Source: Patescibacteria group bacterium
Lineage (GTDB): Bacteria; Patescibacteriota; Minisyncoccia; Portnoybacterales; UBA2143
Direction: 5' to 3'
Assembly: GCA_018829245.1 (NCBI GenBank)
Contig: JAHJUH010000067.1
Location: 1-44,502 of the forward strand
Length of the DNA stretch: 44,502 nucleotides
Positions 1 to 44,502 of this stretch are shown here, piece by piece. Position numbers and translations under genes: made by a program. The notes under the pieces were generated by a model, which was given only the letters and a program-made list of their open reading frames with translations, did no database searches and was not told the origin of the DNA. Position 1 is the first letter of the stretch. Every line of letters starts with the position of its first letter.

Positions 1-1
1 C

Positions 2-130
2 GCTTCCGTTGATGACAGCATCGAAAAACTCCAATACGAACTTTATTACATCAAACATCGTTCTCTTGTTTTAGATTTGAGCGTTCTTCTAAGAACAATT
101 AAGATTGTTTTAATGGGAGGTGGGAGATAA
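2..130 (+). CDS. C-terminal fragment of a polyprenyl-phosphate sugar-phosphate transferase (bacterial sugar transferase family); 5' end lies outside the window
   Basis: Frame 2 is open from the window edge to TAA at 128-130. The translation ASVDDSIEKLQYELYYIKHRSLVLDLSVLLRTIKIVLMGGGR carries the C-terminal YYI-x3-S-x2-LD-x5-T signature typical of WbaP/PglC-type initiating transferases. GGAGGTGGGAG in its last codons acts as the Shine-Dalgarno for the next gene. Confidence 0.7.
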   Translation, partial: ASVDDSIEKLQYELYYIKHRSLVLDLSVLLRTIKIVLMGGGR

Positions 131-132
131 AT

Positions 133-984
133 ATGAAAATATCAATAATTATCCCAGTTTATAATGAAGAAGAAGGAATTAAAAAAGTAATTGATGATTT
201 AAAGGTGTGTTTACCTAATCAGGAAATTATTGTGGTTGATGATTACTCCACTGACCAGACTAATCAGATAATAAAAAACATAAGTGATATTAAGATTATC
301 ACTCATACAAGAAATCAAGGATATGGAGCTTCTTTAAAATCTGGAATTAGAGAGGCCCAGGGTCAGTATATAATCATTATCGATGGAGATGGCACATACC
401 CCATAGATGCTATTCCAGAATTAATTAAATACGCAGAAGAATATGATATGGTCTCAGGTGCCCGTCAAGGAAAAAATCATGACGCGCGCTGGCTCTACAC
501 TCAAAGAATTGGCAAATTTGTTTTAAAAAAAATAGCTGGATACGTAACTCAAACAAAAATCCCTGATATTAATTGTGGTTTAAGAATTTTTAAAAAAGAA
601 ACTATTAAAAAATTCTGGAACCTTTATCCTCAAGGATTCTCATTTACGACTACTTCTTTAGTGGCTTTTTTATCTAATGATTATCGAGTTAAATTCGTTC
701 CTATTAATTATCATAAAAGAGAAGGCAAATCTACATTAAAGCCATTTAAAAGCTTTACTGCTTTTATTAACTTAATCTTTAAAATATCTTTATTTTTCAA
801 ACCGATTCGAGTCTTTCTTCCTTTAAGTATATCTTTTTTCTTGTTGGCAATCGGTATAGCCGTCTATAGTCTTGTTTGGGATGAAATATTTTATGATACT
901 ACTGTCATCCTTATTTCAGCTATGGCTTTACAAACATTTTTCTTTGGTCTCTTAGCTGAAATAATTGTTCATAATCGAAAATAG
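133..984 (+). CDS. GT2 glycosyltransferase, polyprenol-phosphate sugar synthase type (DPM1/GtrB/ArnC-like) with C-terminal TM helices
   Basis: N-terminus ISIIIPVYNEEEGI, VVDDYSTDQT and the IIDGDG (DxD-type) motif. Two hydrophobic C-terminal helices (FLPLSISFFLLAIGIAVYSLVW, ALQTFFFGLLAEIIV). Strong SD upstream; TAG stop at 982-984. Confidence 0.85.
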   Translation: MKISIIIPVYNEEEGIKKVIDDLKVCLPNQEIIVVDDYSTDQTNQIIKNISDIKIITHTRNQGYGASLKSGIREAQGQYIIIIDGDGTYPIDAIPELIKYAEEYDMVSGARQGKNHDARWLYTQRIGKFVLKKIAGYVTQTKIPDINCGLRIFKKETIKKFWNLYPQGFSFTTTSLVAFLSNDYRVKFVPINYHKREGKSTLKPFKSFTAFINLIFKISLFFKPIRVFLPLSISFFLLAIGIAVYSLVWDEIFYDTTVILISAMALQTFFFGLLAEIIVHNRK

Positions 985-986
985 TT

Positions 987-1640
987 ATGGAATTAGAAAA
1001 TCTAATTAAAACTAGAAGAAGTATTAGAAATTTTACTAATCAACCAGTAGATCTTGAATTAGTAAAAAAAATAATTGAGTTAGGAACCCATGCGCCTTCA
1101 GCCTGCAATATCCAGGGTTGGCATTTCATTATTATTAAAGATCAAAAAATAAAGGATGAAATGATTGATCTGGGTAGTTCGATAATAATTAAAAATGCAC
1201 CAATTGGAATTTTGGTTCTTTACGATCAAAGAACAAAAAATACTGAATACCAAGATCACATTCAAAGTGCTGCTGCTGCCATTCAAAACATTCTTTTATC
1301 CGCTCACGCTCACAATTTAGGAGCCTGCTGGGTTTGCCACTTGCCTCTTAAGGAAAAATTAAAAAAACTATTTAAGATTGAAAAATATTTAGATCCAATT
1401 GCCTATATCATTATGGGCTATCCTCAAAGAGAACCCTATCAAGTAAAAAGAAAATACCAATTAGAAGAAATGATTAGTATCGACAAATTTTATCGAAAAA
1501 CACCTCTTCAATCAACCGAAAAATTGTTAACCCTTAAAAAAAGTTTGTATAAAATATATCGCCATACTCCAACCTGGCTTAAAAAATTATTCTTTAATAA
1601 ATTAATAGATAAAAAATTTGTTAAAAAATTTAAAAACTAA
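987..1640 (+). CDS. Nitroreductase-family flavoprotein with a Lys-rich C-terminal tail
   Basis: RRSIRNF near the N-terminus and PSACNIQGWHF are typical of the nitroreductase fold. About 55 extra basic C-terminal residues. Its stop overlaps the next start (TAATG at 1638-1642). Confidence 0.8.
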   Translation: MELENLIKTRRSIRNFTNQPVDLELVKKIIELGTHAPSACNIQGWHFIIIKDQKIKDEMIDLGSSIIIKNAPIGILVLYDQRTKNTEYQDHIQSAAAAIQNILLSAHAHNLGACWVCHLPLKEKLKKLFKIEKYLDPIAYIIMGYPQREPYQVKRKYQLEEMISIDKFYRKTPLQSTEKLLTLKKSLYKIYRHTPTWLKKLFFNKLIDKKFVKKFKN

Positions 1641-3055
1641 TGAAAGTACTATTTATTAATCCGCCTAATCAAAATGAAATCATTAGCTGTAATCCAGAAA
1701 TTATCAAAAAAGAAAGAGGTTATGACCCTCCTTTGGGAATATTATATCTAGCTGGTTATTTAGAAAAAAATTCTAACCATCAGGTTAGTGTTATTGACGC
1801 TCAAGTAGAAAAACTAAGCTATTCTCAGCTAACTCAAAGGATAGAAGAATCTTCACCTGATGTAGTTGGCATTACAGCTATGACCTTCACATTGATAGAT
1901 GTCATTAAGGTTATTGAATTGGTTAAAAAAATTGACTCTCGAATTAAGATAATATTAGGTGGACCTCATGCTCACATTTATCCCAAAGAAACCCTTGATA
2001 TACCAGGGGTTGATTTTGTTGTTTTAGGCGAAGGAGAAAAACCATTATTAGAATTATTAGAAAATATAGAAAACCCAGAAGAACTTAAGAATATGAAGAA
2101 TATCGCTTTTAAGGACGGAGATCAAATAATTGTTTCTGAATGTCAAGATTATAATCAAAACCTAGACGAACTTCCCTTCCCAGCCATGCACCTAACTCCT
2201 TATAAAAAATACTGGTCTATTTTATCTGGTGATAAAGTCATAACCACTATGTTCACTTCACGCGGTTGTCCTTATCGATGCACTTTTTGTGATCGACCTA
2301 ATATGGGAAAGCTTTTTCGAGCTCGCTCTAGTAAAAATGTGGTTGATGAAATAGAAGAACGTCTCAAAATGGGTATTGAAGAAATATTCATTTATGACGA
2401 TACTTTTACAGTCAACAAACAAAGAGTCATCGATATTTGTGATGAAATTATTAAAAGAAACTTAAAATTCTCATGGGATATTCGAGCTCGAGTAGATACG
2501 GTTAATCAAGAAATACTTGAGAAACTCAAACAAGCTGGCTGTGCTCGAATCCATTACGGAGTAGAATCAGGCACAGAGAAGATATTAAAAGTACTTAATA
2601 AGGGCATTCATCTTGATCAAGTCAAAGAAGTTTTTAGTTTAACTAAAAAAATAGGTATCTCCACTTTTGCTTATTTCATAATCGGCTGTCCAACTGAAAC
2701 AAAAGAAGATATTCTTCAAACTATTAAATTCGCTAAAAAACTAGATACTGATTTTGTCCAAATAACTCTTTTAACTCCATTTCCTGCTACTAAAATCTAT
2801 AACGACGCTTTAGAACAAGGAATAATTAAAGAAGATTATTGGCTAGAATTTGCTAAAAACCCACGTCCTGATTTTAAAACTAAATACTGGACAGAAGAAT
2901 TATCTAATCAGGAATTATTTAAATTTATTAACTATGCTTATAAGCAATTTTATTTAAGGCCTAATTTTATTTTAAAAACACTTAAAGAAATCACCTCTTT
3001 TAATGATTTTGTCAGAAAAGCTAAAGCTGGATTTAAAATTATTTCTATGAAATAA
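1640..3055 (+). CDS. B12-binding domain radical SAM protein (class B), paralog R1
   Basis: N-terminal Rossmann-like B12 domain pattern (MKVLFINPP, PPLGILYLAGYL, DVVGITAM, IILGGPH, VVLGEGE). CxxxCxxC cluster motif GCPYRCTFC. C-terminal YKQFYLRP motif shared with paralogs. Confidence 0.9.
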   Translation: MKVLFINPPNQNEIISCNPEIIKKERGYDPPLGILYLAGYLEKNSNHQVSVIDAQVEKLSYSQLTQRIEESSPDVVGITAMTFTLIDVIKVIELVKKIDSRIKIILGGPHAHIYPKETLDIPGVDFVVLGEGEKPLLELLENIENPEELKNMKNIAFKDGDQIIVSECQDYNQNLDELPFPAMHLTPYKKYWSILSGDKVITTMFTSRGCPYRCTFCDRPNMGKLFRARSSKNVVDEIEERLKMGIEEIFIYDDTFTVNKQRVIDICDEIIKRNLKFSWDIRARVDTVNQEILEKLKQAGCARIHYGVESGTEKILKVLNKGIHLDQVKEVFSLTKKIGISTFAYFIIGCPTETKEDILQTIKFAKKLDTDFVQITLLTPFPATKIYNDALEQGIIKEDYWLEFAKNPRPDFKTKYWTEELSNQELFKFINYAYKQFYLRPNFILKTLKEITSFNDFVRKAKAGFKIISMK

Positions 3056-3068: not shown

Positions 3069-3833
3069 ATGTCCGATAATTTCTTTCAAAGAATCAAAAA
3101 AGAATATCATCATATCACAAACAAACAATGGATTTTAAAGGATGTTGGTCGCCACTGGGATGAAACTACTGATTATGATGATATTAATGAAAAAACTTAT
3201 AGTTATTTTAGAAGATTCGTTGATGGCTATAATCTTTGCACCATTCCAGATAAAAGTTACCTTTTAGATATTTGTAGCCGAACTGGTAATGGCAGTATTT
3301 ATTTTTATCAAAAAAATAAAGTTAGAAAAGTGGTTTGTGCTGATGTAACAGAAAAAATGCAAAAAATCTGTTCTGATAATTTAACGAACTACCAAATAGA
3401 TTTTGAAACTAAACTATTTTCTAATTTTCCTCTCTCTATTCCAGATAACGAATTCGATGCTATCATCTCTTTTGAAACCCTGGAACATATTTATCCTCCA
3501 AAAACTTTTATTCAAGAATTATCTCGTGTCTTAAAACCCGGGGGCGAACTTCTTTTAACCTGCCCCAATGTTTTATGGGAACCAATTCATTGGCTAGCTG
3601 CTATTTTCAATATTCATCATAGCGAAGGACCACATCGTTTTAGAACTAGAAAAAATATCCTTAAAATGCTTGAGTCGGCTAGTTTAAAAATGGAAAAAGA
3701 AAAAACAACTATATTAATACCAGGAGGGCCTAAGTTTTTGATTAAATTTGGAGAATGGTTTGAAAAAAAATTTGAAAAAACTTTAATGCCTTATCTTGGT
3801 CTAAGACGGATTTTTATCTGTCGGAAATATTAA
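3069..3833 (+). CDS. Class I SAM-dependent methyltransferase
   Basis: Motif I-like LLDICSRTGNG, acidic loop CADV, FDAIISFETLEH and LKPGGELLL, typical of the Methyltransf_11/25 fold. Confidence 0.75.
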   Translation: MSDNFFQRIKKEYHHITNKQWILKDVGRHWDETTDYDDINEKTYSYFRRFVDGYNLCTIPDKSYLLDICSRTGNGSIYFYQKNKVRKVVCADVTEKMQKICSDNLTNYQIDFETKLFSNFPLSIPDNEFDAIISFETLEHIYPPKTFIQELSRVLKPGGELLLTCPNVLWEPIHWLAAIFNIHHSEGPHRFRTRKNILKMLESASLKMEKEKTTILIPGGPKFLIKFGEWFEKKFEKTLMPYLGLRRIFICRKY

Positions 3834-3837
3834 TTTT

Positions 3838-4476
3838 ATGAGACTCCCCAAAAAACAAAATGTTTCTACTAATAATCCTGAAAATCCATTACAACGCTAT
3901 TACCAACCATTTATCAGATACTTTTACATCGAAAGGTTAAAAATGGCCTTGAACTTTTTGAAACCTCAAGATAAACAATACGATAAAATTTTAGAAGTGG
4001 GTTATGGGAGTGGCGTATTTTTCCCGGAGCTGACAAAAATCTGCAAAAAACTCTATGGGTTAGAAGTTTTTCCTGAGGCAAAAAAAGAAACGGAACAAAT
4101 GATGGAAAAAGAGAATATTCAAGCAGAATTAACAACGGGAAGTGTCACACAAATGCCATTTGCTGATGATTTCTTTGATGCAATAGTATGTGTCAGCGCC
4201 TTAGAACATTTACAGCCAAATGAAATGGAAAAAGCTATTTCTGAAATTAAACGTGTCACCAAAAATAATGGTTTGATTATTTTAGGTTTTCCATCTGGCC
4301 GAAAGTTAATGCAACTTTATTGCATTTTAATAAAGCGTGATTTACATTTTGACTTTCATCGCTCTGACCATAATTTAATCCTAAAAACAATAACCAAAAA
4401 TTTTCCAATCCAAGAAACAAAAAAGCTCTTCAGCTTTCTGCCTATCTATTATGTAGTTAAATGTCAAAAAAAATGA
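3838..4476 (+). CDS. Class I SAM-dependent methyltransferase
   Basis: ILEVGYGSGVF (motif I), YGLEV, FDAIVCVSALEHL, NNGLIILGFP. Confidence 0.8.
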   Translation: MRLPKKQNVSTNNPENPLQRYYQPFIRYFYIERLKMALNFLKPQDKQYDKILEVGYGSGVFFPELTKICKKLYGLEVFPEAKKETEQMMEKENIQAELTTGSVTQMPFADDFFDAIVCVSALEHLQPNEMEKAISEIKRVTKNNGLIILGFPSGRKLMQLYCILIKRDLHFDFHRSDHNLILKTITKNFPIQETKKLFSFLPIYYVVKCQKK

Positions 4477-5465
4477 AAGAATCAATCGTCTCGTTTTTTT
4501 TATCCAAAATAGATATTAATAAGTTTTCTGATTTCATTAAAAGATCAGTGGTTTTATCTATTCCTTATAAAATAATTGTTCAAAGGTTAATCGATTGGAA
4601 TTTTCCATATCATGTTTTTCTTGAATCAACCAATATATGTAATTTACATTGCAAAATTTGTACAAGGAATATAGCGCCCATAAAACTTGGTTCTATGGAT
4701 TTTGAATTATTTAAAAAGATTGTGAATGAAGCTAGTGTCTATGGCTCCAGAAATTTTTCACTCCATCTTTTTGGCGAACCACTTTTAGCACCAAATATTA
4801 TTCCGATGATTAAATACATCAAACAGAAAAATAATAAAAATACTGTTTTAATCACTACAAATGGAGTATTACTTAATAATAAAATATCTCAAGAAATTAT
4901 TATGAATGGCGTAGACAAAATTATTGTCAGTATTCACGGCGCCAACAAAGAACAATATGAAAATATGACCGGTACTGATAATTTAAATAATGTTGAAGAA
5001 AACATTAAAAATCTAATTAATTTAAAAAACAAAAAGAATAAACCTAAAATATTTTTGCGAATGGTTAGTTTTAAAAAAAATACTACAGAAATAAAAAAAT
5101 TCTATAAAAGATGGTCATCTTATCCAGTTATTATAGACATTAAAGAACCACATAATTTTGGTGGACAAATTGAAACCGGACGCTCAATAGATAGCTTACC
5201 TAAAAGATACCCCTGTTATCACCTTTGGTTAGCCCCAGGAATTAATTGGGATGGACAGGTTTCGATTTGTTGCTGTGACACTTTTAAAGATGCGATTATC
5301 GGCAATGTTAATCAAAATAGCCTACATAAAATTTGGAATGGGGAAAAATTAAAACAATATCGCGATTATCATTTGAGAGGCAAATATGATAAAATTCCCG
5401 TATGTAAAAACTGCGATGTTTGGACAACTTATCCAGATATTTTCTTTGAATATCAAAAAAAATAA
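4461..5465 (+). CDS. Radical SAM protein with C-terminal SPASM-like Cys-rich domain
   Basis: The CNLHCKIC cluster motif follows FLESTNI. C-terminal cysteines are CYHLW, SICCCD and CKNCDVW. The alternative start ATG 4473 would give an ATGA overlap with the upstream TGA stop (4474-4476). Confidence 0.85.
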   Translation: MSKKMKESIVSFFLSKIDINKFSDFIKRSVVLSIPYKIIVQRLIDWNFPYHVFLESTNICNLHCKICTRNIAPIKLGSMDFELFKKIVNEASVYGSRNFSLHLFGEPLLAPNIIPMIKYIKQKNNKNTVLITTNGVLLNNKISQEIIMNGVDKIIVSIHGANKEQYENMTGTDNLNNVEENIKNLINLKNKKNKPKIFLRMVSFKKNTTEIKKFYKRWSSYPVIIDIKEPHNFGGQIETGRSIDSLPKRYPCYHLWLAPGINWDGQVSICCCDTFKDAIIGNVNQNSLHKIWNGEKLKQYRDYHLRGKYDKIPVCKNCDVWTTYPDIFFEYQKK

Positions 5466-5473: not shown

Positions 5474-6913
5474 ATGAAAATTTTATTAATTAATCCTCCT
5501 TATATAAACTTTGAAGGAATGAAAGAATCAGGCGGACATATTATGCCCTTTAATTTAGCTTATTTAGCTGCTTATTTGAGACAAAGGAATGATTGTTCGG
5601 TTAAAATTTTTGACACCGAAGCGCTTTCCCTTAATTATTCTGAAATAAAACAATATTTAGCTAAAGAAAAGCCTGATTTGATTGGTTTTACTTGTCTTTC
5701 TCCTACGATTAATCATATTCTTAAAATCTGTCGAATAGTAAAAAAGGATTTAAATCTAAAATCATCAATTGTTTTAGGAGGGATTCATCCAACTATTTTC
5801 CCTAAAGAAACAATTAAAAATCAATATATTGACTTTGTGGTTGTTGGCGAAGGAGAAATCACTTTCACTGAATTAGTCAAAGCTATTCAAGAAAAAAGAA
5901 CTGATTTTGAAAATATTAATGGCTTATATTATAAAAAGAATGGAGAAATTGTTAAAACCCAACCTCGAGAATTAATTTCCGATTTAGATACTATTCCCTT
6001 TCCAGCTCGAGACCTTTTTAATTTAGATCTTTATTCTTCGGCTCCAACTAAAAAATTAACTGATGAACAATGTTCTCCGATTCTAACTAGTCGTGGCTGT
6101 ACTTTTAATTGTATTCATTGTGTTTCTAAGAGTATTTGGCAAAGAAAAATAAGATATCGCAGTTCTGATAATATAATTTCGGAAATTGAAGAATGTATTA
6201 ATAAATATAATATCAAAGAATTTAGTATTCTTGATGATAATTTTACTCTTAATAAATCTAGGGCTATAGAATTTTGTCAAAAAGTAATTGAAAAAAAATT
6301 ACTGATTGCTTGGATTTGTTTTTCTAGAGCGGATGGTATTAATGACCAATTAATAAAAATAATGGCAGAAGCTGGTTGTAAAAAAATATCCTTAGGGCTT
6401 GAATCTGGCTCTCAAAAAATATTGAATTTGATGCGTAAACAAACAACTATCGAACAAGGCAAGAAAGCCGTTGAAATAATCAGAAAAAATAACATTTTGG
6501 TTCACGCTAGTTTTATGATTGGCAATATTGGAGAAACAGAAGAGACCGTTAAGGAAACTATTAATTTTGCTAAAAGTTTAGATTTAGACAATGCTTCTTT
6601 CTTTATTACCTGTCCAGTCCCTGGCTCTGATTTGTATTATTACGCTCAAAATGAAGGTTTTATTGAAAAAAATACTTCCTGGGAAATGTTTGCTCCTTTA
6701 AGTAATACGCCACCTGTTTTAACTCAAAATAATCTCAGCCAAAATGATTTGATTTATTGGCAAAAAAAAGCTTTTCGAAAATTCTATTTTCGGCCTAAAT
6801 ATATTTATCGTAAATTAAAACAGATTAAGTCATGGGAGGGAATTAAAACAATTTTTCAAGGAATTAAAATATTATTAAGAATTCTAATCAAACCCAAAAG
6901 TAGAACTACTTAA
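5474..6913 (+). CDS. B12-binding domain radical SAM protein (class B), paralog R2
   Basis: MKILLINPP, DLIGFTC, IVLGGIHPT, VVVGEGE. Cluster motif GCTFNCIHC. C-terminal FRKFYFRPKY. Confidence 0.9.
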   Translation: MKILLINPPYINFEGMKESGGHIMPFNLAYLAAYLRQRNDCSVKIFDTEALSLNYSEIKQYLAKEKPDLIGFTCLSPTINHILKICRIVKKDLNLKSSIVLGGIHPTIFPKETIKNQYIDFVVVGEGEITFTELVKAIQEKRTDFENINGLYYKKNGEIVKTQPRELISDLDTIPFPARDLFNLDLYSSAPTKKLTDEQCSPILTSRGCTFNCIHCVSKSIWQRKIRYRSSDNIISEIEECINKYNIKEFSILDDNFTLNKSRAIEFCQKVIEKKLLIAWICFSRADGINDQLIKIMAEAGCKKISLGLESGSQKILNLMRKQTTIEQGKKAVEIIRKNNILVHASFMIGNIGETEETVKETINFAKSLDLDNASFFITCPVPGSDLYYYAQNEGFIEKNTSWEMFAPLSNTPPVLTQNNLSQNDLIYWQKKAFRKFYFRPKYIYRKLKQIKSWEGIKTIFQGIKILLRILIKPKSRTT

Positions 6914-13585: not shown

Positions 13586-13652
13586 ATTAAATAATTTAAT
13601 TATCTTTAGTTCTAATAGATTCAAAAAATTATTTTTGGCATAGTTAAATTAA

Positions 13653-19267: not shown

Positions 19268-19374
19268 TAAATCAACCTTATGTCCAGCCTTTTTTAAAAC
19301 AGCCGAAAGAAAAGATATCCCGACTAACCATTTTGCCTACGAACCAATTTTAGGAGCGATAAATAAGATTTTCA

Positions 19375-25970: not shown

Positions 25971-26323
25971 TAAAGAGTAATAACAATAATGCCAGCTGAT
26001 ACTAATATAATTCCTATAAGCTTAGAGAGAGTAAATGTTTCATCAAGAAGTAAAACTGAAAATATTAACAAGAGAACAAATCCAGCACTCATAGTTATTG
26101 GATAGATAAAGCTAAGTTCAAATTTCGAAAGAAGATACACATATAGAGTAAAACTGATTCCATAAAAAAGAAGACCCAAAAGAACATAAGACGAACTAAT
26201 TATCTCCAACAACTTAGAAAAGGAAACAATATTAATATCTATATCCATCATTCCTTTTCTTAAACTAAATTGAGCAATGACATTAGAGAATAAAGCACAA
26301 ATAATAATGAAAATTTTAAACAT
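25970..26323 (-). CDS. Small 4-TM SMR/EamA-like protein, ArnE/ArnF-type polyprenyl-phosphate-sugar flippase candidate
   Basis: 117 aa with four hydrophobic helices. Its start overlaps the upstream... its stop overlaps the start of the downstream GT-C gene by 1 nt. Confidence 0.6.
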   Translation of the reverse strand: MFKIFIIICALFSNVIAQFSLRKGMMDIDINIVSFSKLLEIISSSYVLLGLLFYGISFTLYVYLLSKFELSFIYPITMSAGFVLLLIFSVLLLDETFTLSKLIGIILVSAGIIVITL

Positions 26324-37048: not shown

Positions 37049-38175
37049 ATTAGATCCTTCCAAAAACTAACTATTTTACCAATAATCTTTTCTTGATTGA
37101 ATCTTTCTTTAACCATTACTTTACCAGCTTGGGCTATTTCCTCAGCTTTATCTGGATTATTAAGTAAATAAAGAACCTTTTTAGCCAAAGCTTCGCTATC
37201 ACCAATCGGTACTAAAAATCCATTGACTCCATCTTTAATTACTTCCTTGGAACCAGTTGTCTCTGTAGCCACGACAGGAAGCCCAGAGGCCATAGCTTCG
37301 ACTAAAACCTTACCAAAGCTCTCTGAGCAAGAAGAAGAGACATAAACATCTGAAGCGTGATAATAGTTAATTAAATCTTCTTGTTTAATTTTTTTAACCG
37401 AATTTAAGATTAAATTATCATCCCCTTTAATTTTACCTGTTAAAGAGATATTAGCTCCTAATTGCCAAAAAGCAAGTTTTTTGTAGTCCTCATAAACTAA
37501 TTCAATCGTTTTATACAATGTCTTATAATCCTTAGAAGGATCTTTTCGTCCGACATTAATAATCGTTTTATGATTCTTATTCTTTAATCTTAACTTATTA
37601 ACTTTTTTCTCATCATATTTTTCAAATTTTTCTACATTAACTGGCGTTGGAATAACTCTAATTTTTTTATTAGGAACACCAACTTTGATTAATTTGTCTT
37701 TAATCCCAGAACTGACAACTCGAACTCCATCAGCTCCACTAACAACAAACTTACTTAATAAAAGAAAAAACCAATTAAACCACCAACGTCCTTTTTCAAA
37801 AAGCCAATATTTATTATTCCAAAAATCACCATGAAAATGGACTAACAAAGGAATCTTAAATCTTTTTTTAACAAACCAACCTGCTAATCCAGTTAAAAAG
37901 GGATCTTGGCAAACAATCAAATCATATTTATCTGGCCAATAAATTCTTTTAGCTATTTCAAAAGCATCAAGAATGTAATTTATCTTATTTTTTGAATTAG
38001 TTGGATGAACCTTTAGATTCTGACCAAATTCTTTCTTTTTAAAACCTTTTTTAGTAAAAACAATAATATCCAATTGCCCAGCTTCTTGAGCATATTTTTG
38101 ATGGCGTTCTAAAACATCGCCGCTATAATCGGCGCCTAATAAAGTCCTATCAATGCTAATCATTAAAATTCTCAT
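37045..38175 (-). CDS. GT4 (GT-B fold) glycosyltransferase
   Basis: SESFGKVLVEAMASGLPVVATETTGSKE and NGFLV. Confidence 0.85.
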   Translation of the reverse strand: MRILMISIDRTLLGADYSGDVLERHQKYAQEAGQLDIIVFTKKGFKKKEFGQNLKVHPTNSKNKINYILDAFEIAKRIYWPDKYDLIVCQDPFLTGLAGWFVKKRFKIPLLVHFHGDFWNNKYWLFEKGRWWFNWFFLLLSKFVVSGADGVRVVSSGIKDKLIKVGVPNKKIRVIPTPVNVEKFEKYDEKKVNKLRLKNKNHKTIINVGRKDPSKDYKTLYKTIELVYEDYKKLAFWQLGANISLTGKIKGDDNLILNSVKKIKQEDLINYYHASDVYVSSSCSESFGKVLVEAMASGLPVVATETTGSKEVIKDGVNGFLVPIGDSEALAKKVLYLLNNPDKAEEIAQAGKVMVKERFNQEKIIGKIVSFWKDLI

Positions 38176-39656
38176 GTTTTTGTGACAAACCTTTTAGCTA
38201 ATTTATAATCCCAAGGAAGCCAGAAACATTTCATTTTCCATCTTAACTGACATAATAATACAAAAAAAAGTTTTAAAAGCTTATTTACTTTAATGGTTGA
38301 ACCCATAGCACTTTCGATTGAATGAGCTCCAAATCTGACATAGGCCTCTAATGATTCTATAAACCCAGGGTTATCAAGCCAAGGAAATTTACTGATATCT
38401 AAATAATTTAATTCATCTTTAACTGTTTCTCCCCACTGATCTAGTGATTCAGGTTCTTGCCAGCCCACGGCTAAGCATTCTTTGTAAAGTTCTGAACCAG
38501 GATAAGGTCTAAAAGCCTGAGGCCCTAAAATTTGAACCTGATCGCCTAATTTAACTAACTCATCAATTAATTCTAATGTTTCCATTACTTCACTTCTAGT
38601 TTCGCCCGGTAAACCAGCCATAAAGGAATATTGGGGAATAATTCCATACTTTAAACACATCTTAGCTGAATTGATTACATCTTCGGGCATAATGTCTTTC
38701 TTAATTTTTTTTAAAATACGAGGACAACCTGATTCTGCACCAAAAGACAGTAGATAGCAACCAGATTCTTTTAACTTTTTAATAAATTCTTCATCAATTA
38801 TTCCTTCTCTTAAATAATTAGCCCGAACAGTTGTTTCCCAGGGTGTAATTAAATCTTCTTCTATCATTCCATTAATAATCTGTTTAGCTCTTTTAATATC
38901 AACAAAAAAGTTTTCATCCCAAAAACGAAGTTTTTTTGCTTTCCCGCCCTGAAAGGGCGAGGTCTCGCCTTTGGCGGAAAAATATTCTTTGTTTTTTATT
39001 ATCCTTATATCTTCTAGAACTTGCTCAGCTGTTCTTGTCCGCCAATGGTTTTTAAGAATAGCGTTGATACAAAAAGTACAGCGATGAGGACAACCTCGAG
39101 AAGTTAAAGAAGGAATTAAATGAAGATTTTCTAAAATTTCTTTAGGCACTAACTCCCAATTAAAAAGAGGCATTTGAGCTGGATCATGTAATTCTCGTGG
39201 TTGGTTAATAATAACCTCATCTCCTGATTGATAGGCAATCCCTTTAATATCATTTAGAGATTTACCATTAACAATATCCAACATAGTTAACTCACCTTCG
39301 CCATAACAGACCATATCAATCAAAAAATGACTAGCTGTTTGTTTAATAAAGAAACTCGGGTGAGGACCACCCCAAATAACCTGACAATCAGAGTTATTTT
39401 CTTTAACTAAACGAGATAATTCTAGGGCCTCTGGAATTTGTGTCGTCATAACTGAAATTCCGACATAATCACAATCTTTAACTTTTTCTTTAACTAAATC
39501 TAAATAATTTTTCTGCCTGACCCCGTCAATGATCTCCACCTTAATATTATAAAAATCTAAATATGTAGCAATACTTAATAATCCAACGGAAATAGAGCTA
39601 TCGTAATTCTCCTTATTAATATTAAAAGCCGGATTGATTAGTAAAACTTTAGACAT
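38172..39656 (-). CDS. B12-binding domain radical SAM protein (class B), paralog R6, carrying a 15-codon GC-rich insert
   Basis: MSKVLLINPA, YVGISVM, VIWGGPHPS, VCYGEGE. Cluster motif GCPHRCTFC. The tracked ORF starts at 39671, but ATG 39656 matches the paralog N-termini. The insert SAKGETSPFQGGKAK lies at 38934-38978. Confidence 0.9.
   Translation of the reverse strand: MSKVLLINPAFNINKENYDSSISVGLLSIATYLDFYNIKVEIIDGVRQKNYLDLVKEKVKDCDYVGISVMTTQIPEALELSRLVKENNSDCQVIWGGPHPSFFIKQTASHFLIDMVCYGEGELTMLDIVNGKSLNDIKGIAYQSGDEVIINQPRELHDPAQMPLFNWELVPKEILENLHLIPSLTSRGCPHRCTFCINAILKNHWRTRTAEQVLEDIRIIKNKEYFSAKGETSPFQGGKAKKLRFWDENFFVDIKRAKQIINGMIEEDLITPWETTVRANYLREGIIDEEFIKKLKESGCYLLSFGAESGCPRILKKIKKDIMPEDVINSAKMCLKYGIIPQYSFMAGLPGETRSEVMETLELIDELVKLGDQVQILGPQAFRPYPGSELYKECLAVGWQEPESLDQWGETVKDELNYLDISKFPWLDNPGFIESLEAYVRFGAHSIESAMGSTIKVNKLLKLFFVLLCQLRWKMKCFWLPWDYKLAKRFVTKT
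38943..38977. repeat. GC-rich multi-hairpin element E1 embedded in frame in radical SAM gene R6
   Basis: CCCGCCCTGAAAGGGCGAGGTCTCGCCTTTGGCGG. CGCCCT pairs with AGGGCG, GGCGAG with CTCGCC, and CGCC with GGCG. GC content is far above the flanking A/T runs. Confidence 0.6.
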
Positions 39657-39657: not shown

Positions 39658-40818
39658 TTACAAATTCTCAAAAATCATTACTGTTTCTTTAACTAGATCG
39701 TCCCAAGAAAATCTTTTTAAATCTTCCTTGGCATTACTAACCAATCGATTAGCTAGTTCTTGATCATCTAGAATTCGACTAATCGCTTTAAACCATTGTC
39801 CTTTATCCCGATAATCAACTAATAATCCCGTTTGACCGTTTTTAATTGTCTCTAGATTACCACCAGCTTTAGTGGTGATAACAGGTATCCCCACCTTCAT
39901 GGCCTCCAAAATAACAAAGGACATTCCTTCATAATTTGTATTTAAAACAAAAACATCAGCCATTTTTAAATAAGCAACAACTAATTGACGGCTAATCCGA
40001 CCAACAAAAAAAACATTTTCCTCTACATCTAAATCAAGAACTAATTTTTCTAAATTCTTCCTTTCTGGACCCTCGCTAATAATGACGAATTTAATATCTC
40101 CATATTTCTCAATAAGTCGAGGCATAATTTTGATCAACATATCAACACCCTTCCAAGGGGTTAAGCGAGCATTAGTTAGAATAACTCGTCCAGAAATATT
40201 AAGTTCTTTTTTTAAATCTACTTTCAAATCATCGTTTAAATCTAAAAAATCAACTGAGTTGTAAATTACTTTAATTTTCTCCTCGGCTACCCCAATTTTT
40301 TGAGCTAAATCTTTAAGAAAATTACTGACAACAATGACTTTATCAGAATTAAGTAAAATCTTTTTTCTAATTTTTTTACGCTTTTCAATTAAATGAGAGT
40401 ATTGCTTATCCTGAAAAGTTAAAATATCATCTGTAGTTATTCCCTGACTTAAAGCCGTTTCCCAAGCTGAATCACCAACAAACCTAGTCACCAACTTCTT
40501 ACCCAAAAATCTTTTGATCAATAGGGCGGTTAAGCCAGCTGTATATAAATCCTGGTTGTAAATAATATCTGATTTTAAAGCCAACCAAAAACCTTTGATT
40601 AAATAAAGAAAACTTTTTAAAAAAGAAGGCCATTTATCAGAAATAACTTTAACTGAATAAGGATATTTTTTTGCTTCATTTTTATTACCGAAAGTTAAAA
40701 CAGTTACCTGATAACCACGTTCAATAAGATCTTTATTAAGCTCCTTTAATAAGGTTGGTGGTCCACCAACTCCTTTTAAGAAAACTCCAGTTAAAATTAG
40801 AATTCTATTATTTCTCAT
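39658..40818 (-). CDS. GT4 (GT-B fold) glycosyltransferase
   Basis: GVGGPPT near the N-terminus, YEGMSFVILEAMKVGIPVITTKAGGNLE, GLLV. Confidence 0.85.
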   Translation of the reverse strand: MRNNRILILTGVFLKGVGGPPTLLKELNKDLIERGYQVTVLTFGNKNEAKKYPYSVKVISDKWPSFLKSFLYLIKGFWLALKSDIIYNQDLYTAGLTALLIKRFLGKKLVTRFVGDSAWETALSQGITTDDILTFQDKQYSHLIEKRKKIRKKILLNSDKVIVVSNFLKDLAQKIGVAEEKIKVIYNSVDFLDLNDDLKVDLKKELNISGRVILTNARLTPWKGVDMLIKIMPRLIEKYGDIKFVIISEGPERKNLEKLVLDLDVEENVFFVGRISRQLVVAYLKMADVFVLNTNYEGMSFVILEAMKVGIPVITTKAGGNLETIKNGQTGLLVDYRDKGQWFKAISRILDDQELANRLVSNAKEDLKRFSWDDLVKETVMIFENL

Positions 40819-41933
40819 AATTTATTGAAAATATTTTCCATCTTTTGAGCAACGCTATCCCAAGTATATTTTTCCCTAACTAGATTTAACCCATTATTGA
40901 TTAATGTTTCCCTAAGTTCATCATTCCCTAAAATTTCTTTAATCTTTTCGGCAATATCTTGAGGATTATTTACCTCACAAAACAAACCTGTTTTTCTGTC
41001 TTCCAAGAAATCAACTATTCCACCCACGGGCGTAGCGATAATTGGCACTCCAGCCGCCATTGCCTCTAGAAAAGAAATGCCTAGACCCTCAGATAAAGAA
41101 GCTCGAACAAAAACATCGGCTGAAGAATAGTATTTTGCTAAATCTCTATGATTAATCTCCCCTTCAAAAACAACTTTATCTTCAAGATTTAATTTTTTGG
41201 TTAAATTCTTTAACTCTTTTTCTTGTTCTCCACTTCCAATAATTATAATTTTAAATAAAAAATCTAAATATTGTCCGGCTTTAATTAAATCAGCTACGCC
41301 ATTTTTCTTGACTAGGCGAGAGACAGTTAAGATTTTGAGGTCCGACCTTTGCAAAGGTCGGACCTCAAAATCTGATCTAAATACATCTAAATCAACTCCA
41401 TTAGGGACAACTTTGATGGGACATTTTGCTCCCATATTTTTAGCCCAATTAGATAAAAAATTGCTAATCGCCTGGATATAGTCAGTTTGCTTAAAAATCT
41501 GATAAAACCAGTATTTAAAAATACCAACTTTTTTTAAAATTTCTTCTGGAGGATCACCTTCTTGGAGGGTTAATAGCCATGGTATATGAGGAAATTTTTT
41601 CTTAAAACGTAAACCTAAAAACCCACCGAAAGAGGCCATAATAGACCAAACTAGCTTATAATCTCTTTTTTTATTTAAACTTATTGCCTTTTTTAGACCT
41701 AGAAAAGGCAAGAGATATTTATCGAAATTAGAACCAAAACCAACCCGGTAAACATTAATATTATTAATTTTCTCTTCTTCTTTTAACTCTTTCTGTATTT
41801 TGGCTGTGATCATATCAAACTCAAAACCCTCAATTCGGTCTGTTATTTCCTTAACAGCCACTTCTGCCCCACCTATTAAAGGAAAATAAGCCGTAGAAAA
41901 AATTAAAACTTTTGGCACTTGATTATTGGCCAT
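40815..41933 (-). CDS. GT4 (GT-B fold) glycosyltransferase containing a perfect 44-bp palindrome in its interdomain linker
   Basis: IGGAEVAV near the N-terminus, SEGLGISFLEAMAAGVPIIATPVGGIVD. The palindrome at 41330-41373 encodes DFEVRPLQRSDLKI. Confidence 0.85.
   Translation of the reverse strand: MANNQVPKVLIFSTAYFPLIGGAEVAVKEITDRIEGFEFDMITAKIQKELKEEEKINNINVYRVGFGSNFDKYLLPFLGLKKAISLNKKRDYKLVWSIMASFGGFLGLRFKKKFPHIPWLLTLQEGDPPEEILKKVGIFKYWFYQIFKQTDYIQAISNFLSNWAKNMGAKCPIKVVPNGVDLDVFRSDFEVRPLQRSDLKILTVSRLVKKNGVADLIKAGQYLDFLFKIIIIGSGEQEKELKNLTKKLNLEDKVVFEGEINHRDLAKYYSSADVFVRASLSEGLGISFLEAMAAGVPIIATPVGGIVDFLEDRKTGLFCEVNNPQDIAEKIKEILGNDELRETLINNGLNLVREKYTWDSVAQKMENIFNKL
41330..41373. repeat. Perfect 44-bp palindrome E2 (22+22, no loop) inside a GT4 coding sequence
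   Basis: AGATTTTGAGGTCCGACCTTTG|CAAAGGTCGGACCTCAAAATCT. I verified it base by base as its own reverse complement. Confidence 0.9.
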
Positions 41934-41955
41934 ATATGCTTTAATATACTATAAA
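41934..41955. promoter_or_regulatory. 22-bp divergent intergenic region with face-to-face -10-like boxes; candidate leaderless starts
   Basis: ATATGCTTTAATATACTATAAA. On the plus strand TATACT ends 5 nt before ATG 41956. On the minus strand TATATT ends 9 nt before ATG 41933. Neither start has a Shine-Dalgarno. AT-rich sequence makes chance matches likely. Confidence 0.3.
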
Positions 41956-43143
41956 ATGACTAAAAATTCAACTTGCCTCGCCGAAGCAAGGCGTAGGCGG
42001 GTTCTATACATAATTACTAAATCTGTCTGGGGCGGGGCTGCTAAGTACGTCTATGACCTCTCAACTAACCTAATGAGTGGGTTTGATGTGGCTATAGCTG
42101 CTGGCCTGCCTCGTAGCAAGGCGGGTGGACAGGGTCAATTTTATAAAGAGGTAAAAAAAACCAATATCCCCTATTATCAAATCACCAATTTCCAACGAAC
42201 TATTAATCCCTTTAAGGATTTGTTCGCTTTTTTTGAGATTTTAAGCCTCCTTTTCCAGCTAAAGCCAGATATCATCCATGTTAATAGTTCTAAAGCCGGT
42301 GGTATTGTTGGTTTAGCTGGTTTGATTTATAAAGTATTTTATAATAAAGAAATTAAACTTGTTTTTACCGCTCATGGTTGGGCTTTTAATGAAGATCGTC
42401 CTCAATGGCAAATTAGTCTAATTAAATTCTTTAGCAAAGTAACTTCTTTATTTTATGACAAAATAATTTGTGTTTCTGAATATGATCGCCAAATGGCTCT
42501 TAAATATAAAATCGCGCCAGAAAGAAAATTAATTACTATTCATAATGGCATAGATATTAAAAATATTAATTTTCTTTCTAAAGAACAAGCTCAAAAAAAA
42601 TTAATCGGTCGAGAATCTCCTTTACTTATCGGCACAATTGCTGAATGGACTAAGAATAAAGGATTAATTTATTTAATTAAAGCGACTCAGATCCTCGAAT
42701 TAAAAGAAAAAGAATTTGATGTTATTCTCATCGGTAGCGGAGAAAATCCAGATAAAGAAAAAATGTATGATTATGATAAAAAATATAACTTGGATAATGT
42801 CCGCTTAATTGAATTTATGCCTGAGGCAATTAAGTATCTTAAAGGGTTTAATATCTTCATTCTTCCATCTCTTAAAGAAGGATTACCTTATACGATCATT
42901 GAAGCCATGGCCGCTCAGCTACCTATTATTGCCACTAATGTTGGTGGTATTCCAGAAATGATAGAGAATAATATTAATGGTATTTTAATAGAACCAAAAA
43001 ATCCCGATTTAATCGGGGAAAAAATTACTTATCTAATTAACAATCCAGAAAAAGCTCAAGTTATGGCTCAAAAAGCCAGACAAAAAGCAGAACAAAAATT
43101 CAGTTTGAATAAGATGATAGAAAAAACAAAAAAGCTATATTAA
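41956..43143 (+). CDS. GT4 (GT-B fold) glycosyltransferase with two GC-rich motif copies in its 5' region
   Basis: VLYIITKSVWGGAAKYVYDL N-terminal strand, NSSKAGG, KEGLPYTIIEAMAAQLPIIATNVGGIPE. The tracked ORF uses TTG 41926, which would overlap the divergent gene start. ATG 41956 is preferred. Confidence 0.8.
   Translation: MTKNSTCLAEARRRRVLYIITKSVWGGAAKYVYDLSTNLMSGFDVAIAAGLPRSKAGGQGQFYKEVKKTNIPYYQITNFQRTINPFKDLFAFFEILSLLFQLKPDIIHVNSSKAGGIVGLAGLIYKVFYNKEIKLVFTAHGWAFNEDRPQWQISLIKFFSKVTSLFYDKIICVSEYDRQMALKYKIAPERKLITIHNGIDIKNINFLSKEQAQKKLIGRESPLLIGTIAEWTKNKGLIYLIKATQILELKEKEFDVILIGSGENPDKEKMYDYDKKYNLDNVRLIEFMPEAIKYLKGFNIFILPSLKEGLPYTIIEAMAAQLPIIATNVGGIPEMIENNINGILIEPKNPDLIGEKITYLINNPEKAQVMAQKARQKAEQKFSLNKMIEKTKKLY
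41972..42001. repeat. GC-rich hairpin element E3 at the 5' end of a GT4 coding sequence
   Basis: CTTGCCTCGCCGAAGCAAGGCGTAGGCGGG. GCCTCGCC pairs with GGCG(T)AGGC around a 7-nt loop. It shares TGCCTCG and AGCAAGGCG with E4. Confidence 0.7.
42103..42128. repeat. GC-rich hairpin element E4, a second copy of the E3 core in another reading frame
   Basis: GGCCTGCCTCGTAGCAAGGCGGGTGG. CCTGCCT pairs with AGGCGGG (one G-T) around a 7-nt loop. Core TGCCTCG-N1-AGCAAGGCG compares with TGCCTCG-N4-AGCAAGGCG in E3. Confidence 0.7.
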
Positions 43144-43144
43144 A

Positions 43145-44502
43145 ATGAAAGTTATTCTTGTTTCCCCTTCATTTAATGTTCATACTGTTGCACCTCCTTT
43201 AGGACTAGGCTATATTGCCTCAGTCCTTTTGAATAATGGCCACCAAGTTGAAATACTAGATCCTTCAAAAGAAAAGCTGTCTCTTGATGAGATTACCGAG
43301 ATTATAATCACTAAAAATCCAGATGTCTTGGGTTTAAGTATCCTTACTCCCAGATATAATACTAGCAAAGAATTAATTGCTAAGGTTAAAGAAAAAGCAC
43401 CTCAAATTAAAATAATTGTTGGTGGCGCCCATATTTCTGCCTTGCCAGAAATATCAATTCAAGATATCAAAGCCGATTATGCTGCAGTCGGTGAAGGAGA
43501 ATACACTTTACTTGAACTTCTAGAACATCTTCAAGGAAATAGAAAATTAGAAGATATTCCTGGTTTGATATATTATCAAGATGGAATAATTAAATCTAAT
43601 CTTCGACGACCTAATATTGAAAACTTAGATTCAATTCCTTTCCCAGCTTGGCATTTAATGGATCCTCGTGAATATCCACCAATGCCCCATCAATTCTTTT
43701 TTAAAAAATATCCTGTCGCCCCAATCATGACTACTCGAGGTTGTCCTCATATCTGTAGTTTTTGTGCCGCAGAATCAATTTGGGGTAGGAAATATAGGAC
43801 TAGAAGCGTTAAAAATATTGTTGATGAAATTGAACTTTTAGTCACTAAGTATGGAGTTAAAGAAATACATATTGAAGATGATAACTTCACTTTAATTAAA
43901 AAACATGCCCTAGATGTTTGCAATGAGATAATTAGACGTAAATTAGATATTGTTTGGAAATGCCCTAATGGAGTCCGAGCTGATAGCTTAGACGATGAAT
44001 TGCTAGCCAAAATGAAAGAATCTGGTTGTTATCAATTAGCTTTTGGGATTGAATCAGGAAATCAAGAAATACTTAACAGTGTTAATAAACATCTAGACCT
44101 TAAGATTATACCTGAGGCAGTCAGAAGAGCTAAGGATGCTGGATTAGAGGTTCACGGGTTCTTTATGATTGGTTTCCCAAATGAAACATTTCAAACAGCC
44201 ATGGATACAATAAGATTTTCTAGGTCTATTGGTCTTGATGTAGCTAATTATGCTACCTTAGCTTATCTACCTGGGTCAGCTCTTTTTAGGGAATACATTA
44301 AAAACAAAAAAACCGACTCCATAGATTGGGGAAGTATTAACTATTATACACCCCAAGCTACGGTCGGCCTCACTTCAGATCAACTTAAAAAAATTCAAAG
44401 AAAAGCTTTACTTAGATTCTACTTTTCTCCGAAAGTCTTAATCGGTCATCTTTTTAAATTAAAACTTAAACAAATACCCTATTTACCCAAAGCCATGTTT
44501 AA
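43145..44502 (+). CDS. B12-binding domain radical SAM protein (class B), paralog R7; 3' end lies outside the window and it is absent from the ORF track
   Basis: I translated it by hand from ATG 43145 with no stop to the window end. MKVILVSPSF, PPLGLGYIAS, DVLGLSIL, IIVGGAHIS, AAVGEGE. Cluster motif GCPHICSFC, IEDDNF, C-terminal LLRFYFSPKV. Confidence 0.85.
   Translation, partial: MKVILVSPSFNVHTVAPPLGLGYIASVLLNNGHQVEILDPSKEKLSLDEITEIIITKNPDVLGLSILTPRYNTSKELIAKVKEKAPQIKIIVGGAHISALPEISIQDIKADYAAVGEGEYTLLELLEHLQGNRKLEDIPGLIYYQDGIIKSNLRRPNIENLDSIPFPAWHLMDPREYPPMPHQFFFKKYPVAPIMTTRGCPHICSFCAAESIWGRKYRTRSVKNIVDEIELLVTKYGVKEIHIEDDNFTLIKKHALDVCNEIIRRKLDIVWKCPNGVRADSLDDELLAKMKESGCYQLAFGIESGNQEILNSVNKHLDLKIIPEAVRRAKDAGLEVHGFFMIGFPNETFQTAMDTIRFSRSIGLDVANYATLAYLPGSALFREYIKNKKTDSIDWGSINYYTPQATVGLTSDQLKKIQRKALLRFYFSPKVLIGHLFKLKLKQIPYLPKAMF

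Follow-up and report, generated by a model that had tools for sequence, protein, structure and literature searches.

The stretch of DNA considered here, 44,502 nucleotides of a contig from a Patescibacteria group bacterium (JAHJUH010000067.1; hereafter the window), carries 40 tightly packed genes at a G+C content of ~30% and no tRNA genes. Seven of the genes, R1 to R7, encode radical S-adenosylmethionine (SAM) proteins with a B12-binding domain, the "class B" architecture, and two, S1 and S2, encode radical SAM proteins with a SPASM domain. Three of the class B genes, R1, R4, and R5, are each accompanied by a family 2 glycosyltransferase (GT2) that resembles the polyprenol-phosphate-sugar synthases, and this pairing is, as judged from gene order, conserved across phyla. 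An eighth B12-type radical SAM gene, R8, lies just beyond the window and, like the other genes outside it, was read from a 58-kb contig of a Patescibacteria group bacterium metagenome-assembled genome (MAG; GCA_043825535.1). The radical SAM genes of the window and their three candidate GT2 partners are as follows (aa, amino acids; TM, transmembrane; GT4, family 4 glycosyltransferase).

133..984, plus strand: GT2_a, polyprenol-phosphate sugar synthase-like, 2 C-terminal TM helices; conserved partner of R1
1640..3055, plus strand: R1, B12-binding and radical SAM; motif CPYRCTFC
4461..5465, plus strand: S1, radical SAM and SPASM; top PDB match BtrN
5474..6913, plus strand: R2, B12-binding and radical SAM; motif CTFNCIHC
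17993..19375, minus strand: R3, B12-binding and radical SAM; in-frame TAG at 19339-19337
19375..20787, minus strand: R4, B12-binding and radical SAM; CX4CX2C motif; ortholog directly after GT2_c in marine contig L167
23317..24258, minus strand: GT2_c, ArnC/GtrB-like polyprenol-phosphate sugar synthase
26342..27724, minus strand: R5, B12-binding (marginal) and radical SAM; conserved partner GT2_d
27724..28392, minus strand: GT2_d, small AglJ/PpgS/DPM-like GT2, 222 aa
30875..31963, minus strand: S2, radical SAM and SPASM
38172..39656, minus strand: R6, B12-binding and radical SAM; GT4 genes on both sides
43145..44502, plus strand: R7, B12-binding and radical SAM; truncated at the edge of the window, its length in the contig being 457 aa

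Pairing of Radical SAM and Glycosyltransferase Genes

The best matches of GT2_a, GT2_c, and GT2_d are found among GtrB, DPMS, ArnC, AglJ, PgfS, and PpgS. GT2_a matches GtrB (5ekp) at E 9e-19, DPMS (5mlz) at 2e-17, and ArnC (9hwj) at 2e-16, GT2_c matches the ArnC model at 216 bits, and for GT2_d the scores are 145 bits with AglJ and 81 bits with PpgS, all of these matches lying below the equivalog cut-offs. C-terminal TM helices are present in GT2_a and in GT2_c.

A GT2 of the polyprenol-phosphate-sugar-synthase type lies ≤5 kb from the R1 ortholog (≥44% identity) in 14 of 18 loci, usually immediately upstream of it, and of the four loci without a nearby GT2, three lie on contigs that are short or truncated. 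The loci were drawn from Nealsonbacteria, the PVC-group, FCPU426, Thermodesulfobacteriota, Polyangia, and others, and genes for an LPG_synthase_TM protein, a nitroreductase, and relatives of the window's methyltransferase MT_a and membrane protein GTC_a recur close to the R1 orthologs. For R5, a GT2 of 222-229 aa adjoins the ortholog (46-74% identity) in all six cases, one such pair standing isolated among unrelated genes on a 2.3-Mb contig and another beside a DUF2142 membrane protein. For R4 and R5 together, marine contig L167 has the gene order AsnB-methyltransferase-GT4-PMT_2-GT2-R5-EamA-PMT_2-GT2_c-R4. The background association with GT2 genes among broader class B relatives is 34% among the matches listed, the background set consisting of relatives at 25-33% identity from a metagenome scan with RGCPxxCxxC, with one R5 ortholog among those matches.

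Gene fusions also occur. One R1 ortholog is fused to an LPG_synthase_TM domain (797 aa; L072), others are fused to a class I methyltransferase (P0037/P0378), and an 1879-aa protein with the order radical SAM-methyltransferase-GT2-methyltransferase-GT2-radical SAM (P0444) is encoded on two JGI contigs, the corresponding products on one ENA contig being 726 and 1191 aa. Tandem proteins with two to four class B modules exist as well. The polyprenol-linked intermediate that a preliminary description of this DNA had envisaged gains strength from the conserved cassettes and from the fusion of a radical SAM protein to a flippase-like domain.

Some observations on these relatives may be recorded separately. 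Among the R1 relatives are proteins of 2,000-2,600 aa with several class B matches, four modules having been confirmed by Pfam in P0384; the giant or otherwise unusual members are P0444, P0384, P0399, P0452, and P0379, and one has an intein in its radical SAM domain. The taxon labels of five contigs from co-assembly MAG records with close R1 orthologs (L007, L019, L027, L035, and L038), given as "Methanosarcinales," "Enterobacterales," or "Rickettsiales," look doubtful. The R1 ortholog of L007 is 81% identical to R1 and stands in the same GT2-nitroreductase-R1 order.

The abundance of radical SAM genes in the window, on which the preliminary description had remarked, has counterparts elsewhere. 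In Portnoybacteria (GCA_028688325.1), an equivalent island of ~56 kb adjoining housekeeping genes opens with Bac_transf-nitroreductase-GT2-R1-methyltransferase-R2-radical SAM-LPG_synthase_TM, includes the R3-GT4_a pair, and has at least eight B12-type and one SPASM radical SAM genes, and a Bathyarchaeota contig has seven B12-type radical SAM genes in 21 kb. Such density is real and recurs, and is no oddity of this one assembly. Related radical SAM genes in glycan loci of cultured bacteria are found on Lawsonia intracellularis plasmid 1 and on Solidesulfovibrio carbinolicus pDCAR1. The former (NC_008012.1, L174; 27 kb), from a pig pathogen, is largely a glycan locus, with GT2s, two DUF2304 small membrane proteins, DUF2142, a B12-type and a second radical SAM gene, and five class I methyltransferases, and appears to be uncharacterized.

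The Radical SAM Proteins and Their Possible Chemistry

The seven B12-type and two SPASM-type genes counted previously are borne out by profile searches. R1 to R7 score 97.6, 79.7, 47.1, 75.2, 33.0, 58.7, and 84.9 bits, respectively, for the B12-binding domain (PF02310) against a gathering score of 32.1, the match of R5 being marginal, and 75-101 bits for Radical_SAM (PF04055), above its gathering score. S1 and S2 likewise exceed the PF04055 gathering score and match SPASM (PF13186) at 53.7 and 39.9 bits versus 21.5. The class B architecture of the paralogs is established. A cysteine cluster motif, previously described as common to all seven, takes the form CX3CX2C in R1, R2, R3, R5, R6, and R7, and also in R8; R4 departs from it with a noncanonical CX4CX2C (CPWGRCTFC, residues 212-220), which is kept in the close marine ortholog (CPWGRCTVC, L167), with CX3CX2C in more distant relatives. 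The C-terminal motif FY(L/F)(R/S)P is found, as had been noted, in R1, R2, R4, R5, and R7 and is absent from R3 and R6; R8 has it too. Members of the R5 orthogroup share an invariant N-terminal REGRCQQxDxW with a conserved Cys (R5 residues 18-28 in the alignment) and are without the GG motif of the B12 domain, having IGIH in place of GGxH.

The most likely start of R5 is 27724 and that of R6 is 39656. R3 starts at the ATG at 19375, which overlaps the R4 stop (TAATG), and its codon 13 is an in-frame TAG (19339-19337) where the 460-aa orthologs P0241, P0244, and P0259 have Gln. Since TAG is a normal stop here, ending 4 of 39 genes in the window, R3 is interrupted in this assembly; recoding was rejected on the same ground, and a nonsense variant or a sequencing error is more likely. 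The protein collection has no record of the exact R3 product.

Pairwise identity among the eight paralogs is only 25-35%, and the paralogs are, to judge from their sequences, old. Orthologs at 45-90% identity are numerous for R1, for R3, and for R5, both within Patescibacteria and outside that phylum, and in a neighbor-joining tree (200 bootstraps) R1, R2, R3, R4, and R5 each form an orthogroup of their own with 86-100% support, which accords with the earlier proposal of at least two subfamilies. At E≤1e-30, 17,320 relatives of R1 are found among representatives of 50%-identity clusters.

Family models give no direct assignment, as neither the eight paralogs nor S1 or S2 reaches an NCBIfam equivalog cut-off. 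BchE and HpnJ are the top NCBIfam matches, at roughly 25-50% of their cut-offs: scores are 143-227 bits for HpnJ (TIGR03471; cut-off 577.6), 80-247 bits for BchE (TIGR02026; cut-off 481), and 43-123 bits for the AprD4 family (NF033070; cut-off 500). For R7, a P-methyltransferase family ranks first, and the cut-offs of the methylase families (PhpK, HpnR, KedN5, QCMT, and TsrM) are likewise reached by none of the paralogs. The top PDB matches of S1 are BtrN and DesII and that of S2 is BlsE, all sugar-acting relatives. In an AlphaFold model of R1 (pLDDT 88), the closest fold is that of AprD4, followed by MgmA/QCMT, TsrM, OxsB, CysS, and TokK.

These comparisons bear on the earlier expectation that the product is a glycan with several C-methylated (branched) sugars formed with cobalamin, which the cell would then import. 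We regard this outcome as rather doubtful. Methylation is the commonest reaction of the subclass according to PMC12931638 and PMC11659888, the PF02310 matches of R1, R2, R4, and R7 are strong (75-98 bits), and the Rossmann domain of R1 can be aligned with its counterparts in QCMT, OxsB, TokK, and CysS, which do bind cobalamin, and not with that of AprD4. At the two Trp residues of TokK the signal is mixed and was not relied on for a methylase call: Phe-83 of R1, kept in its orthologs, aligns with the hydrophobic lower-axial Trp-76 (PMC12931638), but at the position of Trp-215 no paralog has an aromatic residue, and R1 shares an Arg there with OxsB. Against methylation, the best family matches, BchE and HpnJ, are nonmethylases and all families, those of methylases included, score far below cut-off; AprD4, the top match of R1 in both PDB sequence and fold, binds no cobalamin, and the same is true of the ArsL homologs in its network (PMC12931638). 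Further, R5, which lacks the GG motif, barely passes the PF02310 threshold, the island already has seven class I methyltransferases, and the 79.7 kb comprising the window and its flanks contain no cobalamin genes and no match to an Rfam family, the cobalamin riboswitch included.

An alternative is that a class B scaffold here serves nonmethylating sugar chemistry, such as 1,2-diol dehydration or deoxygenation of the AprD4 kind, ring contraction yielding a carbocycle in the manner of HpnJ, OxsB, or calditol synthase, oxidation, or epimerization, with cobalamin absent or acting as an electron sink. This is a serious possibility, if still short of an even one. The closest families and structures, BchE, HpnJ, AprD4, and OxsB, point toward it, as does the hopanoid cassette hpnJ-hpnI-hpnL, which has the same architecture of GT2, radical SAM protein, and LPG_synthase_TM protein; the radical SAM protein of the Lawsonia plasmid groups with HpnJ at 96% bootstrap. 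To our knowledge, moreover, Patescibacteria are not known to make cobalamin. Yet none of the eight paralogs reaches the HpnJ, BchE, or AprD4 cut-off, the neighbor-joining tree places all of them outside the HpnJ clade and gives no supported grouping with BchE, and the CX3CX3C-type spacing of AprD4 is absent. Cobalamin-dependent C-methylation is possible but not favored over nonmethylating radical chemistry, and a class B architecture does not by itself warrant the conclusion that the sugars are C-methylated. The preliminary description is right on the glycan and lipid-linked context and over-specific on methylation and cobalamin, and the case corrects a shortcut by which a B12 domain is equated with a C-methylase and hence with a demand for cobalamin.

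All eight paralogs end in a basic tail (+7 to +15 over the last 50 residues), which in six of the eight ranks first or close to first in amphipathicity among the segments of the protein and is less prominent in R6 and R7. Basic amphipathic tails fit work at a membrane surface, and they also raise the question of whether the radical SAM target is a lipid, either the polyprenol carrier or a membrane lipid, as for the archaeal GDGT enzymes GrsA/B and Gmm and for the hopanoid methylases HpnP/HpnR. Fusion to a lipid-flippase-like domain would agree with such a target, and many characterized B12-domain radical SAM enzymes act on lipids (PMC13459092). We nevertheless consider it improbable, given the tight and conserved pairing with sugar-transferring GT2s and GT4 genes within a glycan island and the lack of lipid-synthesis genes in the 58-kb contig; eight different lipid steps would also seem hard to place in a cell of the candidate phyla radiation (CPR).

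The Island and Its Extent

The earlier counts of 12 glycosyltransferases (four GT2 and eight GT4, by Pfam) and seven methyltransferases (class I or FkbM) hold. Further genes encode three PMT_2/GT-C-like proteins, a DUF2298 protein, Wzx, a small EamA protein, and an LPG_synthase_TM protein, as well as AsnB, a deacetylase, two epimerase/reductases of the short-chain dehydrogenase/reductase (SDR) type (GalE-like and RmlD-like), and the nitroreductase. Apart from the genes already given, the window contains the following.

1..130, plus strand: initiating phosphoglycosyl transferase (Bac_transf, PF02397), 3' end only, last 130 nt; 380 aa in the contig (L001 1-1143)
987..1640, plus strand: FMN nitroreductase-family protein; recurs beside R1 orthologs
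3069..3833, plus strand: MT_a, class I SAM methyltransferase; domain fused to R1 orthologs in P0037/P0378
3838..4476, plus strand: MT_b, class I SAM methyltransferase
6921..7871, plus strand: LPG_synthase_TM flippase-like membrane protein, 7 TM; domain fused to the R1 ortholog in L072
7830..9542, minus strand: GTC_a, 10-TM, weakly GT-C-like; kept with the R1 module
9530..10435, minus strand: RmlD-like SDR reductase
10416..11384, minus strand: GT2_b, soluble GT2
11381..12079, minus strand: FkbM-family methyltransferase
12060..13382, minus strand: Wzx/MOP flippase (PF13440/PF01943)
13653..14561, minus strand: MT_c, class I methyltransferase
14975..16888, minus strand: DUF2298 membrane protein, 12-TM
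16893..17996, minus strand: GT4_a; adjacency to R3 kept in Portnoybacteria
20784..21467, minus strand: MT_d, class I methyltransferase
21464..23311, minus strand: AsnB-type glutamine amidotransferase, exopolysaccharide (EPS) type
24264..25970, minus strand: GTC_b, PMT_2 GT-C-type membrane glycosyltransferase
25970..26323, minus strand: small EamA/SMR-like membrane protein, 117 aa; candidate ArnE/F-like flippase subunit
28364..29746, minus strand: GTC_c, PMT_2/PMT GT-C-type membrane glycosyltransferase
29739..30893, minus strand: GT4_b
31960..32610, minus strand: MT_e, class I methyltransferase
32607..33374, minus strand: PgaB/IcaB-like polysaccharide de-N-acetylase
33375..34382, minus strand: GalE-like NAD-dependent epimerase/dehydratase
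34366..35427, minus strand: GT4_c
35430..36473, minus strand: GT4_d
36470..37063, minus strand: MT_f, class I methyltransferase
37045..38175, minus strand: GT4_e
39658..40818, minus strand: GT4_f
40815..41933, minus strand: GT4_g
41926..43143, plus strand: GT4_h

Same-strand neighbors overlap by up to 29 nt or sit ≤18 nt apart, the two exceptions being gaps of 270 and 413 nt, so that the window consists of a few very long operons; the translational coupling previously ascribed to all of these genes stands for the close junctions and fails at the two gaps. These (13383-13652 and 14562-14974), which flank MT_c on either side, are the sole noncoding stretches of >100 nt. Almost no space is left for promoters where strands change, because the genes there overlap or nearly meet: the 3' ends of the convergent LPG_synthase_TM (6921-7871, plus strand) and GTC_a (7830-9542, minus strand) genes overlap by 42 nt, and the 5' ends of the divergent GT4_g and GT4_h reading frames overlap by 8 nt or, with the NCBI start, lie ~23 nt apart. 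In a promoter and terminator scan of this AT-rich DNA, promoter-like sites did not exceed shuffle expectation (42 versus 48.6 expected). A 115-aa open reading frame with a TTG start (11484-11831, plus strand), antisense within the FkbM methyltransferase gene, is probably spurious.

Several of the membrane proteins are assigned with differing certainty. GTC_b and GTC_c score 39.6 and 47.1 bits for PMT_2 against a cut-off of 26.1. No PDB sequence matches were found for GTC_a or GTC_b, and the structure of GTC_a predicted by AlphaFold from three paralogs of the window (pLDDT 36.7) was too poor for a fold search. The LPG_synthase_TM protein matches the TIGR00374 flippase-like domain at 90 versus 43 bits, and the EamA-like protein, with 3-4 TM helices, shows weak homology (30.1 versus 28.2 bits). 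For the nitroreductase beside R1, the best PDB matches are generic NADH oxidase/nitroreductases; BluB, which makes the cobalamin lower ligand, was considered and rejected at 79 bits against a cut-off of 150.

Past R7, the contig continues with a 761-aa Wzy_C-family protein with TPR repeats (PF04932, 73 bits) just outside the window, a TPR protein, R8, and two secreted repeat proteins. The whole island exceeds 50 kb and has at least eight B12-domain and two SPASM radical SAM enzymes. The gene placed at its front by the preliminary description is a true phosphoglycosyl transferase, but only its end lies within the window. With that enzyme and Wzx in the window and the Wzy_C-family polymerase/ligase beyond it, the parts of a Wzx/Wzy-type pathway are present in one locus; a chain-length regulator was not found there. 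Together with the GT2, GT4, GT-C, and sugar-tailoring genes, these components uphold the original view of an envelope-glycan island of which the radical SAM genes are an integral part.

The two secreted proteins upstream of R8 (L005 42-3023) have in common a C-terminal domain of ~110 aa with no Pfam match. The first has a signal peptide, seven or eight repeats of ~52 aa (ITFGSEY.FN...KFV.AYQD..), and a PEPEPE linker, and the second has a Ser/Thr/Gly-rich stretch; they could be surface proteins carrying or binding the glycan. The start of the R8 coding region overlaps the 3' end of the signal-peptide-bearing repeat-protein gene, an arrangement that, along with the presence of ApyD among the top NCBIfam matches, would suit a role of some paralogs, R8 especially, in modifying proteins or peptides such as these neighbors, in the manner of PoyC, QCMT, or ApyD. 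Such a role is very improbable: RiPP-type precursor-peptide, protease, and transporter genes are missing, all of the window paralogs are embedded between glycosyltransferases, and the ApyD scores are ~25% of the cut-off.

A Proposed Pathway

The reading we prefer, and hold to be moderately probable, is that the window makes up most of a Wzx/Wzy-type surface glycan (or glycoconjugate) island of >50 kb, with side branches of GT2, flippase, and GT-C components in which radical SAM enzymes edit lipid-linked sugar. In the main pathway, the phosphoglycosyl transferase would start a lipid-linked repeat unit, the eight GT4 enzymes and the one soluble GT2 would extend it, Wzx would flip it, and the Wzy_C-family protein outside the window would polymerize or ligate it. 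Superimposed on this would be three side branches, in each of which a synthase-like GT2 (GT2_a, GT2_c, or GT2_d) would make a lipid-phosphate monosaccharide, with the LPG_synthase_TM protein and the small EamA protein as candidate flippases and GTC_a, GTC_b, GTC_c, and the DUF2298 protein as candidate GT-C-like transferases.

R1, R4, and R5 would each be dedicated to one branch, editing the lipid-phosphate-linked monosaccharide on the cytoplasmic face before flip and transfer, at a point analogous to that of ArnD between ArnC and ArnE/F/ArnT. We infer that the substrate class would be a lipid-linked sugar; candidate reactions include C-methylation, dehydration, oxidation, epimerization, or ring contraction. 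The growing lipid-linked oligosaccharide would be tailored by R3, R6, and R7, which stand beside GT4 genes, by R2, which stands beside S1, and by S1 and S2, and the last decorating steps would fall to the class I methyltransferases, AsnB, and the deacetylase.

Several points weigh against this reading. Synteny and fusions indicate functional coupling only, so that the substrate could instead be a nucleotide sugar, the carrier lipid, or the finished polymer, and the roles of all members are predictions from sequence. The L072 and P0444 fusions are possibly, in part, artifacts of gene calling or assembly. GTC_a falls below the PMT_2 cut-off (18.3 versus 26.1 bits) with no significant GT-C match, its profile giving STT3B in the PDB at E=0.22 and 67% in an hhalign comparison with GTC_c. 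R3 carries its in-frame stop in this assembly and is complete only with readthrough of the TAG. Finally, the parallel with the hopanoid cassette is architectural only, as no orthology of HpnI to GT2_a, or of HpnL to the LPG_synthase_TM protein of the window, could be detected.

A broader and decidedly more tentative proposal is that cassettes of a GT2 and a class B radical SAM enzyme constitute a widespread, undescribed type of glycan decoration, in which the radical SAM enzyme rewrites a polyprenol-phosphate-linked monosaccharide before export so that noncanonical sugars or carbasugars are displayed. Putative cassettes of this kind, often with flippase-like and GT-C-like genes, are found in Patescibacteria, DPANN, Bathyarchaeia, Omnitrophota, and others. 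In this reading, their chemistry would be, for example, C-alkylation or a ring contraction that yields a carbocycle, the kind of reaction proposed for HpnJ and calditol synthase, and islands such as this one would stack several of them.

B12-domain radical SAM proteins are a very large and mostly uncharacterized group of enzymes, and for a large part of it this locus and its relatives offer a testable context, namely two- to four-gene cassettes with lipid-phosphate sugar synthases. If the proposal is correct, radical chemistry would be added to the known routes for bacterial and archaeal surface glycans, with a bearing on the chemistry of cell surfaces in episymbiotic CPR and DPANN organisms, and the minimal sets of a GT2 and a radical SAM gene would be small enough for heterologous reconstitution. 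In full-text searches of the literature, no account was met of radical SAM enzymes in polyprenol-phosphate/GT-C systems, nor of CPR glycan islands rich in them, and the statement that such loci have no chemically defined product still agrees with what was found there.

Comparison with Known Systems

The solved class B enzymes and the aminoglycoside C-methyltransferases, which depend on cobalamin, may be compared first. GenK, GenD1, Fms7, TokK, QCMT/MgmA, TsrM, OxsB, and CysS share with the window paralogs an N-terminal Rossmann domain and a radical SAM barrel, and GenK and GenD1 methylate sugar carbons (PMC12931638, PMC4340712); identity is, however, only 16-22%. BchE, the anaerobic cyclase of Mg-protoporphyrin IX monomethyl ester, leads the NCBIfam matches of R1 (239 bits) and R2 (247 bits), and its identity to R1 is ~29% over ~93% of the latter. 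Unlike the situation for BchE, there are no (bacterio)chlorophyll genes here, nor is its cut-off reached or a grouping with it supported in the tree.

AprD4, the radical SAM 1,2-diol dehydratase of the apramycin pathway (PDB 6FD2), has a sugar as its substrate. It is the best PDB match of R1 (E 8e-28 over the radical SAM core), and its structure agrees with the predicted fold of R1 at a TM-score of 0.70-0.73. It differs in that R1 scores 123 bits against the family cut-off of 500, in that the N-terminal domains do not align, and in that AprD4, with no cobalamin bound (PMC12931638), acts in secondary metabolism on a soluble substrate.

A different kind of likeness is that to the three-component systems GtrA/GtrB/GtrC, ArnC-ArnD-ArnE/F-ArnT, and mycobacterial PpgS/Rv3779, in which, as here, synthase-like GT2s are clustered with small flippase candidates and PMT_2/GT-C proteins, the flippase and GT-C assignments in the window being by weak homology only. 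In the Arn pathway, the sugar on undecaprenyl phosphate is edited by ArnD ahead of flipping; here a radical SAM protein would take that role, and no described example of this was found in the literature.

A parallel in gene architecture is the hpnJ-hpnI-(hpnK)-hpnL cassette, annotated as hpnJ-hpnI-LPG-synthase-domain cassettes in Paraburkholderia and Burkholderia, which converts bacteriohopanetetrol glucosamine to the cyclitol ether and combines a B12-domain radical SAM protein, a GT2 that attaches a sugar to a membrane lipid, and an LPG_synthase_TM (PF03706) protein. HpnJ is the first or second NCBIfam match, with near full-length alignment, for all seven window paralogs, and HpnJ and calditol synthase (Cds) are the described cases of radical SAM enzymes to which the reworking of a lipid-linked sugar is ascribed (PMC13459092). 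In contrast to the context of HpnJ, hopanoid genes (hpnI, hpnH, and shc) are lacking in the window and the contig, and the acceptor would presumably be polyprenol phosphate in a polysaccharide pathway rather than a hopanoid. What is new at this locus is that R1, R4, and R5 are each paired with a GT2 resembling the polyprenol-phosphate-sugar synthases, a widespread variation on a known logic of glycan decoration.

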